DNA of 63,470 nt, the filler included, from Globobulimina sp. (lineage: Eukaryota), in NCBI GenBank assembly GCA_003354225.1. It is 54 parts of 54 records of this genome, joined end to end, with 100 filler letters (N's around TTAATTAATTAA, not from the genome) between each part and the next. Parts side by side here need not be neighbours in the genome. Positions count along the whole stretch, not along the records: positions 15,315 to 16,392 come from PIVH01024123.1; positions 16,493 to 17,570 come from PIVH01024124.1; 52 more parts are not named here. One strand, written 5' to 3'. This document shows, piece by piece, positions 15,315 to 54,978 of this stretch (the stretch's first letter is position 1; the number at the start of each line of letters is the position of its first letter). The notes below the pieces were generated by a model, which saw only the letters and a program-made list of their open reading frames with translations, made no database searches and had not been told where the DNA came from. The position numbers were made by a program, and so were the translations under genes.

Positions 15315-16002
15315 TACATTTTTGCATATTTTCATATAACATACACATTTTTCTTTTACGTTGTGATGCTTTTCTTGTCTGCACTGTCCAATGTTTTTTT
15401 CCTTTATTACTTATTATTTTGAAATTTCGAAATACATAATATCGAGAAATAGGTCGCTGTGAGAATGGTATATACGCTGGATAATTATTTGTATTAGCAT
15501 TTATTCTATACGCTGAATTATCAATACATAGAAATTTTCGTTTAAAACAATGTAAATCTGATTTGAGTTGAAGATATGAATTGTTATTAATATTCGCTTT
15601 ATATGAATGCATCGAATATACGGCAGGTAAATAAATTTCACAGCATTTGTGTTTCATTGGTACATCTTCTGGCACAATTTGTGGATTAATTATATCTATA
15701 AAATCACCGTCCTCAATCTCCCAAGGAAATATGTTATATGTATCAACTGACATTTCTACATAAATTGAATTTCTACAACAATTTTGACCATCACATGTTC
15801 CTTGAAGATCACATAAAGTAAAACCAAATTTAATTTCATTAAATGTAATATTCGATATCATTCCTTGAATTGTTACATTTTCACTATCCTTTACATTTAA
15901 CATAATTATTGATTTATAATCTCTGTTGTATATTTGTGATGCTATATAACGTTCGTCGTCCTGATAATACTCCCACGCGAACTCTGAAAATACGAAATCC
16001 AT
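15315..16002 (-). CDS. 265-aa protein of unit A (continues 16273->16164 across the junction); OB-fold-like N-half, F-box/SOCS-like C-terminal motif
   Basis: Reads ...NMQKC|TLVKESNVPRELIRLICDFTIRKNRKIYWQSVLHNW*; VTIQGMISNI..FTLCDLQG..SIYVEM..TYNIF..EIEDGDFIDI follows the OB-fold pattern. Confidence 0.75.
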
Positions 16003-16055
16003 GTCTGATTGAATAAAGTTTGCTGAAACAAAATGTTATATCCTTTGACAATTTA

Positions 16056-16162
16056 TACGTCAAATTAGATTATAACACTCCGGATTACGTAAAATTAGAT
16101 TATAATTTCAAATAAAAAAGATACATTAAATTAAATTACAGTAAATTAAATTAAATTAAATT
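16056..16162. repeat. Iteron-like 20-bp direct repeats plus TTAAA pentamer tract in the non-coding part of unit A
   Basis: TACGT(C/A)AAATTAGATTATAA at 16056 and 16086; (TTAAA)n at 16125-16162. Confidence 0.8.
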
Positions 16163-16493
16163 GTTACCAATTGTGTAATACGCTTTGCCAATATATTTTT
16201 CTGTTTTTACGTATTGTAAAATCACAAATTAAACGAATTAATTCACGTGGAACATTACTTTCTTTTACTAATGTACATTTTTGCATATTTTCATATAACA
16301 TACACATTTTTCTTTTACGTTGTGATGCTTTTCTTGTCTGCACTGTCCAATGTTTTTTTCCTTTATTACTTATTATTTTGAAATTTCGAAATNNNNNNNN
16401 NNNNNNNNNNNNNNNNNNNNNNNNNNNNNNNNNNNNTTAATTAATTAANNNNNNNNNNNNNNNNNNNNNNNNNNNNNNNNNNNNNNNNNNNNG

Positions 16494-22382: not shown

Positions 22383-22595
22383 ATACCGATACTCGGTTGC
22401 GCCAATTGCTAAAAATATATAATCATTTCCGAGTTGAATCACTTTATCATCATTTTGGTGCCAAACGTCGATATTCTCTTTCTCAATATATTCAGCTACT
22501 CTCTCTTCAGGTTCTAATAAATCAACTTTAATGTATAATGTGTTACATTCACACTTTAACATTCTGTTAGTCAAGTGACCGTTAATTGCGTCCAT
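22383..22595 (-). CDS. Antisense 173-aa ORF of unit B (continues 23340->23032)
   Basis: MDAINGHL...ATEYRY|IPHYHY...CRE*; the first ~70 aa look protein-like. Confidence 0.45.
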
Positions 22596-22838
22596 AATAT
22601 TCGGAGTTTTATTTGTTTACATATAAAACGCAGTGTTATGATTCTGAATAATTAAAAGTGTTTTTATTTTACTTACCTTACGTATCTTTAGTTCACTTAA
22701 ACACTTTACTTTCCTCTTTTAATCCTTCCATTCTACTTTCTTTAGCACGCTGCAGCAGTAAAACTGCAAACATTAAAACGCAATCCAAAGAACCAAACCA
22801 TTGATTGTGTCACCCCCTGGTAATTAACATATAGTAAG

Positions 22839-23459
22839 ATGGCATTGGCATTATCAATTCGTGAATTTGATGCATTGGTGGGCAAAGTCGAAAAGGATCC
22901 AGCATTATTCTTCTTGACCCCATCGTTGATGAAGCAGCCATTAAAAAATCCATCAGCAGTACCGGTTAAATATTATAAGGAGGATTATAAGGCGATTTTG
23001 ACGTATATTAAGAGCAATCGATTGGTATATATTATTCCCGGCAGATCCTCATCGTATCAAACAATTTTAGACCGATTAAAATGGAAATATGAGGCGGCCA
23101 AACCCAGACCAACCGAGAATCCGCGACCAACGAAAGAATTGCTCGCAGCATTTTGCCAACAAGTGTTAGTCTCCAAAGTGAGCCAGTTCCGTAAATCCAA
23201 GCAGTGGACCATTTATAAACGTGAGATATCACAATATGATGTTGATAAATCTCCCTTCTTTGAATCTGAACAAACCAAATCCAAAAACACAAATAAAAAC
23301 ACTTCCGATAATGATTCGTCGGATAATGATAATGCGGTATATACCGATACTCGGTTGCGCCAATTGCTAAAAATATATAATCATTTCCGAGTTGAATCAC
23401 TTTATCATCATTTTGGTGCCAAACGTCGATATTCTCTTTCTCAATATATTCAGCTACTC
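22839..23459 (+). CDS. 216-aa basic protein of unit B (continues 22502-22531 across the junction), unknown function
   Basis: ATG at 22839; reads ...SQYIQLL|SLQVLINQL* through the junction. Confidence 0.7.
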
Positions 23460-28267: not shown

Positions 28268-29000
28268 AGCATATTGGGAGCATATTGGGATCATATTAAG
28301 CATATTGGGATCATATTGGGATCATATTGGGAGCATATTGGGATCATATTGGGATCATATTGAGAGCATATTGAGAGCATATTGGGAGCATATTGGGATC
28401 ATATTGTGACATATTGGGAGCATATTGAGAGCATATTGTGAGCATATTGAGAGCATATTGGGAGCATATTGGGAGCATATTGGGATGATATTAAGCATAT
28501 TGGGATCATATTAAGCATATTGGGATCATATTAAGCATATTGGGACATATTGGGATCATATTGGGAGCATATTGAGACATATTGGGAGCATATTAAGCAT
28601 ATTGGGACATATTGGGATCATATTGTGAGCATATTAAGCATATTGGGAGCATATTGGAATCATATTAAGCATATTGGGATCATATTAAACATATTGGGAT
28701 CATATTGGGAGCATATTGGGAGCATATTAAGCATATTGAGAGCATATTGTGACATATTGTGAGCATATTGGGATGATATTAAGCAATTGGGATCATATTA
28801 AGCATATTGTGACATATTGTGAGCATATTGAGAGCATATTGGGAGCATATTGAAATCATATTGGGACATATTGGGATCATATTAAGCATATTGGGAGCAT
28901 ATTAAGCATATTGGGATCATATTAAGCATATTAGGAGCATATTGGGAGCATATTAAGCATATTATGATCATATTAAGCATATTGGGATCATATTAAGCAT
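28268..29000 (+). repeat. Minisatellite with CATATT core (11-bp GAGCATATTGG/GATCATATTGG and 9-bp AAGCATATT units)
   Basis: Continuous array of about 730 bp. Confidence 0.97.
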
Positions 29001-29081: not shown

Positions 29082-29344
29082 AAAATCACACCCAACTAAA
29101 TCACACCCAACTGAACCAGGCAAATCGCCGACCAAATCACACCCAAATGAACTCTGCAAATCGCCGGCCAAATCACACCTAAATGAACCACGCAAATCGC
29201 CGACCAAATCACACCCAACTGAACCACGCAAATCTCCCAAATAAATCACACCCAACTGAACCACGCAAATCTCCCAAATAAATCACACCCAACTGAACCA
29301 CGCAAATCTCCCAAATAAATCACACCCAACTGACCAAATCACAC
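29082..29344 (+). repeat. ~36-bp tandem repeat AAATCACACCCAACTGAACCACGCAAATCKCC...
   Basis: About 7 degenerate copies. Confidence 0.92.
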
Positions 29345-48276: not shown

Positions 48277-49274
48277 TTGATTTCGATGGATTCCAATAGC
48301 GGGATACCACGGATATTTAAGATACTATCCAAATCCCCATTGGTTTCATTTTTATTATAGATGATATCATTATAATGTTCTTTTGTGTTGGTTTGACGTA
48401 GGACTGCTGCATTCGAGTAATGTTTCCGGTGGTAATAATGGTTCAATCCAACGTGCTCGGTCAGTATTTGGATCATTATAGCCGCCTCATTTCTGGTTAA
48501 CAATTCGAACAATTTATTTAATTTGTTATTCCACATTGGATTATTTACATACAACAGACAGGTTTTATTCTTACGCTGCTTCCATTTAATCAATTTATCA
48601 TCCCCGATTAATTTATACATTAAGGCTAATGCCATTGGATATTCAGTCTCATGGGCCAGGGATTGGTCTAATTCCAGATCCATTACAGCATCATGGACGA
48701 GTTTGTCAATTTGAATATTACCGAAGAAGTCTTCGTGGGCCTTTATTTTAAAGTACGTTAATCGCTTATTGGGCCATTTGTTCTGCAACGTTGCCATGCC
48801 ACGAAATATTTGATCGATTATTATTTTGGTATCTTGGTATTTCGGGTAGGCAGAGAATTTGAGATATTTCAGTGCCGTTAAATTGTCCACGAAAATTGCA
48901 AAATGATTATAATGATTCCGATCCAGATTGATTGTTAATAAATGTTCAATTATTAATACCAACCCTTTTAGTTCGCGTTTGGCCGAATTCGTTAGATATG
49001 TAATGGTTTTAACTTCATGGTTTATTTTCGGTGGTCGAATATATGGAGAATACCATCCGAATGCGCCAACCCCGGGGTTCGGATGGCAGGAGCCATCAGT
49101 ATAAAATTGAAACATTTCAGTGAAATTCATTGGGTCTGATTCGGCTGTGACTACAGTATAATTCGTGGGCATTTTTGGTATGTTATATGTTGGCAGTGCT
49201 GTAATTGGTTTGCATCGCGGATTATTCGGTAATTTGTATTTAGAACGTGCCAAAAATTTATCAAAAGTCAACAT
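48277..49274 (-). mobile_element. RNase H domain of a non-LTR retrotransposon
   Basis: FYTDGSCHPNPG.G, EL, FVDN, KIKAH...GNIQIDKL, then IQILTEHVGLN. Confidence 0.85.
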
Positions 49275-49459
49275 TGCTCGATATAATGGGGAGATGTATA
49301 GGTAATATTTGGTCCGTTTAATGAATTTATTATTATTTACTTTGGTAATATGGNNNNNNNNNNNNNNNNNNNNNNNNNNNNNNNNNNNNNNNNNNNNTTA
49401 ATTAATTAANNNNNNNNNNNNNNNNNNNNNNNNNNNNNNNNNNNNNNNNNNNNGAAAGT

Positions 49460-54022: not shown

Positions 54023-54319
54023 TGTTTTATAATATAAGTCCTTGTCATTATAACAATTTATNNNNNNNNNNNNNNNNNNNNNNNNNNNNNNNNNNNNNNN
54101 NNNNNTTAATTAATTAANNNNNNNNNNNNNNNNNNNNNNNNNNNNNNNNNNNNNNNNNNNNCATGCAATTTTTGTATTTTTTTTCCTGGCAATCCTCCTG
54201 GTGTCTCCTACATTCGTAAATAATATCATCGAAGCGCATTCCGAGATCTATCGCTGGGTCTCCATATTACCCCTGACTATTTTCACCATCGCCGCGATAA
54301 TCAGAGGCCAGATGAAAGG

Positions 54320-54978
54320 CTGGGCGGCGACAATGTCGATTATTGGGGGAATAACACAGGAAATTCGTGGCGAACCACTGGCGATATCAGCGATAATTGG
54401 AACTCTATGCTTTCGTGTTGGGATCACAACGGACCATCGGCGTCGGCATCACCTGGCGGCTGGAAGTTAAATTATATTTATTTATATTTATTTTATATTT
54501 CTATTAATATGCGTATAGTGATCCGGATATGTTGGAAGTGGGAAATGGCGGCATGTCAACGACCGAATATATCACTCATTTCAGTCTGTGGTGTATTGGT
54601 AAGGCGCCCCTTTTAATTGGTTGCGATATCACGAGAATGTCAGCCGACACTCGGATGATTTTAATGAATGAAGAAGCCATTGCTATAAATCAGGACAAAT
54701 TGGGCGTCCAAGGCACTCTCAAAACCAATACAAATAATGGTAATTATCAGGTTTACTCCACGCCGTTAAGCAACAATGCGGTGGCGGTTTTATTTTTAAA
54801 TCGGGCTCTTTCCGCTGGCTCCATCAGTGTAACGTGGCGAGAATTGGGTTTGCAATCGACGCAAACTTATGTCATCAGAGACTTATGGAAGAAACAAAAT
54901 GTTGCTACCACATCGAATGATTATTCCACCACTGTCGCAAGTCATGGCGTTGCTTTTTTTAAATTTACACCTACCTAA
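54320..54978 (+). CDS. GH27 alpha-galactosidase C-terminal part, intron 54466-54518
   Basis: [55 protein letters not shown]. Confidence 0.93.

Follow-up and report, generated by a model that had tools for sequence, protein, structure and literature searches.

A closed 959-bp one-gene contig from Globobulimina sp. that may represent collapsed tandem copies of a fast-evolving orphan gene

The Stellate repeats of Drosophila form a tandem array, with a unit of about 1.25 kb, of a young and fast-evolving protein-coding gene, and amplified young genes often evolve fast. The locus described here resembles Stellate-type arrays in that its unit of about 1 kb holds one complete open reading frame (ORF) and a short spacer, and in that its copies diverge fast in protein yet keep the reading frame, but it differs from them in that its protein is without any relative and the array itself is putative. 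In the cycle_finder preprint, tandem repeats are described as forming cycles in assembly graphs whatever the value of k, and Stellate-type arrays, as tandem repeats do, collapse to a cycle in short-read graphs. Short, self-closing, single-gene contigs have also been interpreted as putative microDNA chromosomes in the sponge Lycopodina hypogea. In the corresponding paper (PMC11572364), microDNAs are inferred from circular contigs, and the ambiguity between circles and tandem repeats, which are not excluded there either, is conceded and argued towards circles. The Lycopodina hypogea contigs are very deep and carry known mitochondrial genes, whereas our contig has a modest depth and carries an orphan gene in a nuclear-type code. 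A third comparison is offered by the Nanoviridae, the components of which, according to the ICTV profile (PMC8515864), measure 0.9-1.1 kb and encode one protein each. Our locus is similar to these components and to alphasatellites in size and in its single protein, although its circularity is putative; unlike them, it has no CR-SL stem-loop, second common region, nanovirid homology, or Rep (PMC8515864), and it is set among a eukaryote's own genes and shares their codon usage.

The window, that is, the whole stretch of DNA that was analysed (63,470 bases), is made up of 54 contigs of 1076-1078 bp that are ordered by size and do not represent one locus, and the GC content of these contigs ranges from 27 to 44%. 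Four of the 10 longest ORFs in the window contain Pfam domains (RCC1, DEAD-box helicase, ribonucleotide reductase, and RNase H), and 32 further ORFs yielded 17 Pfam families, such as AARP2CN, WWE, TLDc, PIP5K, PH, ICMT, PI3/PI4 kinase, and alpha-galactosidase. The alpha-galactosidase (Melibiase) gene, at 54224-54978, is split between two frames by a gap of about 50 nt that we read as a short intron. Since this putative intron splits the frame, the assembly corresponds to genomic DNA, and, given the eukaryotic cellular domains and the low GC content as well, its source is an AT-rich eukaryote with short introns. No Rfam family reached its gathering score anywhere in the window. Several other contigs deserve mention. 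One ORF that fills its contig (50632-51705) has a ribonucleotide reductase barrel domain (E 1.8e-59), and a 358-aa ORF at 48279-49352 has an RNase H domain (E 8.2e-07) and may be a piece of a retroelement. Another contig is mostly satellite (28268-28994 and 29091-29333), with about 70 copies of the 11-nt unit AGCATATTGGG and then a 37/72-nt repeat. Pfam gave no family at E<=0.001 for the other 6 of the 10 longest ORFs (333-359 aa). Orphan proteins are thus frequent in this organism, and the two genes discussed below are not special in being orphans.

Loop A, the subject of this work, is exactly one whole contig of the window (15315-16392), and its features are collected in Table 1. The preliminary description stated that the first 119 bp of this contig equal its last 119 bp, and this is exact, with 100% identity; the repeat starts lie 959 nt apart, which gives a unit of 959 bp composed of one complete gene and a 161-nt AT-rich spacer. 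MEGAHIT prints loops with an overlap as long as k, and 119 occurs in a k-list used with this assembler, which supports the assembler-cycle origin that had been proposed for the overlap. In the assembly graph, the contig forms a closed path. Where the assembler opens such a path is arbitrary, and so the joint between 16273 and 15315 has no special meaning and nothing follows from its lying inside the ORF. An exact terminal repeat is present in 2 of the 54 contigs, and it measures 119 nt in both. The other one, loop B (22383-23459), has a unit of 958 bp, in which a single complete plus-strand ORF (216 aa) is accompanied by 307 nt of spacer. The loop B ORF is also an orphan, for which Pfam returned only TUDOR (E 0.014, below the cut-off) and a word-based search returned no homologue. 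The proteins of the two loops are unrelated (best E 11), and their DNA is unlike.

Table 1. Features of loop A, of the loop B ORF, and of the window that contains them. Positions count along the whole window.
Feature	Position	Strand	Remarks
Terminal repeat, copy 1	15315..15433		Within coding sequence; 119 nt, 100% identical to copy 2
Terminal repeat, copy 2	16274..16392		Equals the assembler overlap; adds no sequence to the unit
ORF, 5' part	15315..16002	-	ATG 16002-16000; codons 1-229 and one base
ORF, 3' part after the joint	16164..16273	-	Last 36 codons and TAA 16166-16164; includes VPRELIRLICDF
Spacer	16003..16163		Separates the stop from the following ATG of the loop; 161 nt, GC 20.5%
TATAAA	16052..16057	-	Coding strand, 55 nt upstream of the ATG
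Direct repeat, copy 1	16056..16075	+	TACGTCAAATTAGATTATAA; TGACGT on the coding strand, 60 nt upstream of the ATG
Direct repeat, copy 2	16086..16105	+	TACGTAAAATTAGATTATAA; last 13 nt (16093-16105) exactly equal 16063-16075
Palindrome TTACGTAA	16085-16092		Overlaps the start of direct repeat copy 2
AT-rich low-complexity stretch	16107..16162		TAAAT-like units, directly downstream of the stop
Loop B ORF	22839 to 23340, then 22383 to 22531	+	ATG at 22839, stop at 22531
Contig joints			N...TTAATTAATTAA...N spacers between the 54 contigs

When the unit is joined, the minus-strand ORF runs uninterrupted for 798 nt and encodes 265 aa followed by a stop, so that the complete, intronless ORF previously described as closing across the junction is indeed there. 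In the joined unit, the longest frame from stop to stop has 276 codons, compared with a mean of 64.3 and a maximum of 139 in 1000 shuffles. Taking as a codon reference the 29 other ORFs of at least 200 codons in the window, the synonymous-codon score of the loop A ORF is z = +1.18, and its coding score is 0.196 versus 0.226 +/- 0.039 in the reference; the five other frames (two shifted, three antisense) are all negative, from -0.26 to -0.87. The ORF is a real coding sequence, and its codon usage is like that of the neighbouring eukaryotic contigs. A tblastn search of the window with the joined 265-aa protein found no paralogue (best other match, E 0.6).

A paralogue does appear in the k=31 contigs of X1, the one sequencing run that contains the unit. 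These contigs include a second, diverged copy of the loop A gene, about 88% alike over 15440-15891, in which one piece of 125 nt has 10 substitutions and 7 gap letters and another of 302 nt has 34 substitutions and 9 gap letters, while the 85-nt block between them is identical in both copies and has about double the depth. The indel clusters sum to +3, +3, and +6, all in frame. Among the 40 of 44 differences that were listed, 28 codons are changed, of which 6 are synonymous and 22 are not, and none is changed to a stop. A rough Nei-Gojobori estimate over 99 codons of the second copy and the loop A ORF gives a dS of 0.19, a dN of 0.11, and a dN/dS of 0.57. A diverged copy that keeps the frame indicates that the loop A gene belongs to a family that duplicates, and, combined with the codon fit, it points to an ORF that is real, weakly constrained, fast-evolving, and a member of a small family. 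Beyond 15440-15911, no second-copy sequence aligned in X1 at a likeness of 85% or more, and thus the ends of the second copy are either much more diverged or unrelated. The depth in X1 is 9.3-12.3 for the unit and 6.9-9.7 for the second copy, a comparison made with the paralogue alone. An exact 26-nt word taken from the block common to both copies had no match in viral or metagenome contigs.

The searches for relatives of the protein gave consistently negative results. Pfam returned no family at E<=10 for residues 1-229 or for either half, which is in agreement with the earlier statement that no Rep or helicase motif is visible. A word-based search of 5.8 billion clusters, restricted to near lengths, gave 11 candidates, none at E<=0.01, and an exhaustive HMMER scan of 1,835,955,588 representatives, run without a length limit, found nothing at E<=0.001. 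There were also no matches at E<=10 in a phmmer search of 177,635 PDB sequences, and PHROGs contained nothing for residues 1-229 and only phrog_25811 (E 0.26) for the tail. A search with back-translated peptide patterns gave 4 matching stretches in viral contigs and 132 in metagenome contigs, with no relative among them. By its sequence, then, the loop A protein is an orphan, with no relative in any library searched. Its N-terminal 120 residues are acidic (net -13), and from residue 151 onward it is basic (net +20), with a KGKK...RKASQRKRK stretch that resembles a nuclear localisation signal and suggests that the protein may be nuclear. The tail VPRELIRLICDF, which had been likened to an F-box or SOCS-box motif, matches no F-box, F-box-like, or SOCS-box profile at E<=10, and the likeness is therefore not supported. 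At that threshold, Pfam returned only MINDY_DUB for the last 59 and 75 residues (E 0.01 and 0.02, respectively) and GAPT (E 0.026); MINDY_DUB reaches 15.6 and 14.7 bits, where the cut-off is 27, and GAPT is likewise below its own.

Some indication of the fold comes from a language-model search, in which the nearest clusters are POT1/Cdc13 both for the whole protein (0.93) and for residues 1-135 (0.92), scores that should be read against controls with shuffled proteins, of which 4-10 in 100 reach 0.9. The next neighbours are OB families of the RPA, CTC1, RADX, and Cdc24 types, and the best named matches fall within one clan in 10 of 10 cases for the whole protein and in 9 of 10 for residues 1-135. 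AlphaFold2 single-sequence models have a pLDDT of 31.3 (229 aa) and 37.4 (135 aa), and their N-terminal half is predicted, at low confidence, as beta strands. Thus, the protein resembles the OB-fold ssDNA-binding domains of POT1/Cdc13 (PF02765) in its nearest clusters and in the beta-rich N-terminal half of its models, but it differs from them in that it shares 162-164 of 256 language-model features, where true members usually share 170, and in that neither PF02765 nor the OB-fold clan gave a profile match (Pfam E<=10) or a PDB sequence match. The OB fold that had been proposed for the N-terminal half consequently agrees with the language-model neighbours and finds no counterpart in the HMM and sequence searches; we consider an N-terminal OB fold of the ssDNA-binding type a lead, not a finding.

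The spacer has features that may be regulatory. It contains two 20-nt direct repeats, whereas 0.04 would be expected, and its TATAAA, its TGACGT or bZIP-type ACGT motifs, and the palindrome TTACGTAA are candidate promoter elements, as judged from their sequence and placement. Neither AATAAA nor ATTAAA occurs on the coding strand of the spacer. Runs X2 and X3, which were made from the sample that also gave X1, contain almost no words of the unit, a result that does not amount to evidence of absence; their contigs match the unit only in the AT-rich stretch, at 16121-16162.

The structure of the loop in the k=31 contigs of X1 bears on the possible origins of the unit. A contig of 323 nt with a depth of 12.3 spans the joint, reading 16106-16273 and then 15315-15469, and therefore the closing sequence is present in the reads at a depth like that of the rest of the unit. 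The loop is thus closed in two assemblies (k=119 and k=31), which were made from the same reads, or possibly so, and are not independent. The contig ends are overrun by none of the 17 aligned X1 records; 16287-16392, being the repeated end, has no separate cover. The k=31 contigs that belong to the unit itself are interrupted at 16087 and 16106, and six X1 records match the unit partly and then become unlike it, at 16054, 16092, 16106, 16125, 16130, and 16162, with unlike continuations of up to 255 letters or more. All of these branches are within the spacer and none in the coding part. The partial matches may be exits to chromosomal flanks, or they may be unrelated AT-rich loci, and the 13-nt copy at 16093-16105, which lies between branch points, would fit a duplication joint with a short templated insertion.

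The explanation that we favour, with a probability of roughly 0.45, is that the assembler produced loop A by collapsing a tandem array, or a duplication, of a nuclear gene that is lineage-specific and evolves fast; a chromosomal tandem array is the case that the preliminary description had itself named as refuting a circle. According to this proposal, several units of 959 bp would follow one another in head-to-tail order along a chromosome of the AT-rich eukaryote behind the other contigs, and the assembler would have merged these copies into a loop while discarding the rare edges that lead to the flanks. The spacer would serve as promoter and 3' end for each copy, the product would be a nuclear protein with an N-terminal OB-like beta-barrel for binding single-stranded nucleic acid, and the family would evolve fast, as a dN/dS of about 0.57 suggests. 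The eukaryotic neighbour contigs, the host-like codon usage, the second copy that keeps the frame, the lack of replicon features, and the breaks and partial matches within the spacer all argue for this explanation, as does, as a weak point, a depth that is not extreme and is near that of the paralogue. Against it stand the unbranched loop at k=119, the absence of X1 records that overrun the contig ends, and the fact that no flank is proven, given that the partial matches of the spacer possibly belong to unrelated AT-rich loci. Moreover, gene-sized loops, of which there are two among the 54 contigs, each with one complete ORF and a spacer, look non-random. Such loops fit selected gene amplification and gene-sized circles equally well, and, because a random duplicated or excised kilobase would rarely amount to one complete ORF plus a spacer, the possibility of a circle keeps some weight.

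That possibility, which we consider rather unlikely, is that the unit is an extrachromosomal circle derived from the host (eccDNA or a small episome), 959 bp long and double-stranded, which carries a nuclear-type gene with its own promoter that would have been excised or copied out and then retained, loop B being another such circle. A real circle would close in both the k=119 contig and the k=31 contig that bridges 16273 to 15315, and would leave no records running beyond the ends, as is observed, and the copy of 16063-16075 at 16093-16105, beside the branches at 16092 and 16106, fits a joint formed at short repeats. The same ambiguity has been argued towards circles for the putative sponge microDNAs (PMC11572364). 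Nevertheless, tandem copies are also expected to give a cycle, and the shared origin of the two assemblies means that the second closure is not independent support. A favoured small circle would also be expected to show a higher depth than the modest 9-12 observed, which is near that of the diverged paralogue, although this is a weak, paralogue-only comparison. Finally, the unit contains no replication function or origin-like structure. If circles were the explanation, one might extend it to the organism as a whole and propose that it keeps some complete nuclear-type genes on circles of about 1 kb, each with an ORF and an AT-rich spacer that contains the promoter, with a nuclear OB-fold ssDNA-binding orphan on loop A and a second orphan on loop B, so that 2 of the 54 contigs would be such circles; we regard this general proposal as unlikely.

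It is also conceivable, if improbable, that the loop is an artefact, in which the closure of the graph is due to a chimeric join produced by whole-genome amplification (WGA), or to a duplication or repeat of local extent, and the genome has a single linear copy. A linear arrangement that runs from 16106 through the gene to 16092, combined with a template-switch joint, would leave the branch pattern that we observed, namely long unlike continuations behind 16092 and before 16106 with a 13-nt copy of nearby sequence between them, and the depth of the unit, which is about that of the paralogue, is in agreement with a single copy. However, the contig that spans the joint has a depth of 12.3, like the rest of the unit (9.3-11.3), which implies that most molecules, and not a minority, carry the closing sequence. 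In addition, a loop at k=119 demands that every 119-mer around the unit be unbranched after pruning, and the window contains a second, unrelated loop with the same make-up of gene plus spacer.

Viral and satellite-like origins were considered in the light of the replicon features of the unit. The size of 959 nt and the single ORF match the components of the Nanoviridae (PMC8515864), the two 20-nt direct repeats of the spacer can be read as iterons, and a protein with a predicted beta-rich part and a basic tail could be compatible with such an element. The spacer contains no inverted repeats and no stem-loop (DNA fold z = -0.93, with 33 of 200 shuffles folding as well), and the only stem of at least 8 bp in the unit is an AT palindrome in the coding part. 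The sequence NANTATTAC, which we take to be the CRESS-type origin nonanucleotide, occurs once in the unit, also in the coding part, and its 20 occurrences in the window, versus 15.8 expected, are attributable to chance. Loop B has no region in common with loop A (longest shared word, 11 nt), although only two loops, perhaps unrelated, could be compared. Pfam, the 1.84 billion representatives, and the viral contigs gave no homology to M-Rep, CP, Clink, MP, NSP, or U proteins, no relative of any kind was found in these or in PHROGs, and the codon usage equals that of the surrounding eukaryotic genes. In short, the suggestion in the preliminary description of a nanovirus-like segment or satellite, that is, a segment of a multipartite circular ssDNA virus whose Rep is supplied in trans from elsewhere, meets with no origin hairpin, no common region, and no Rep, and we consider it highly improbable. 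A viroid-like or obelisk-like RNA was also considered and rejected, as the 959-nt RNA is not rod-like (fold z = +1.45, with 19 of 20 shuffles at least as good).

The meaning of loop A depends on which of these origins is correct. As a real circle, it would offer a rare example of a complete nuclear-type protein gene on a 1-kb extrachromosomal DNA, with a second one in the same size class. If, as we tentatively favour, it is a collapsed tandem array, it would be ordinary in itself and would serve as a warning that circular short-read contigs are not circles, but it would also mark a young, amplified, and fast-evolving gene family in a poorly sampled eukaryote.
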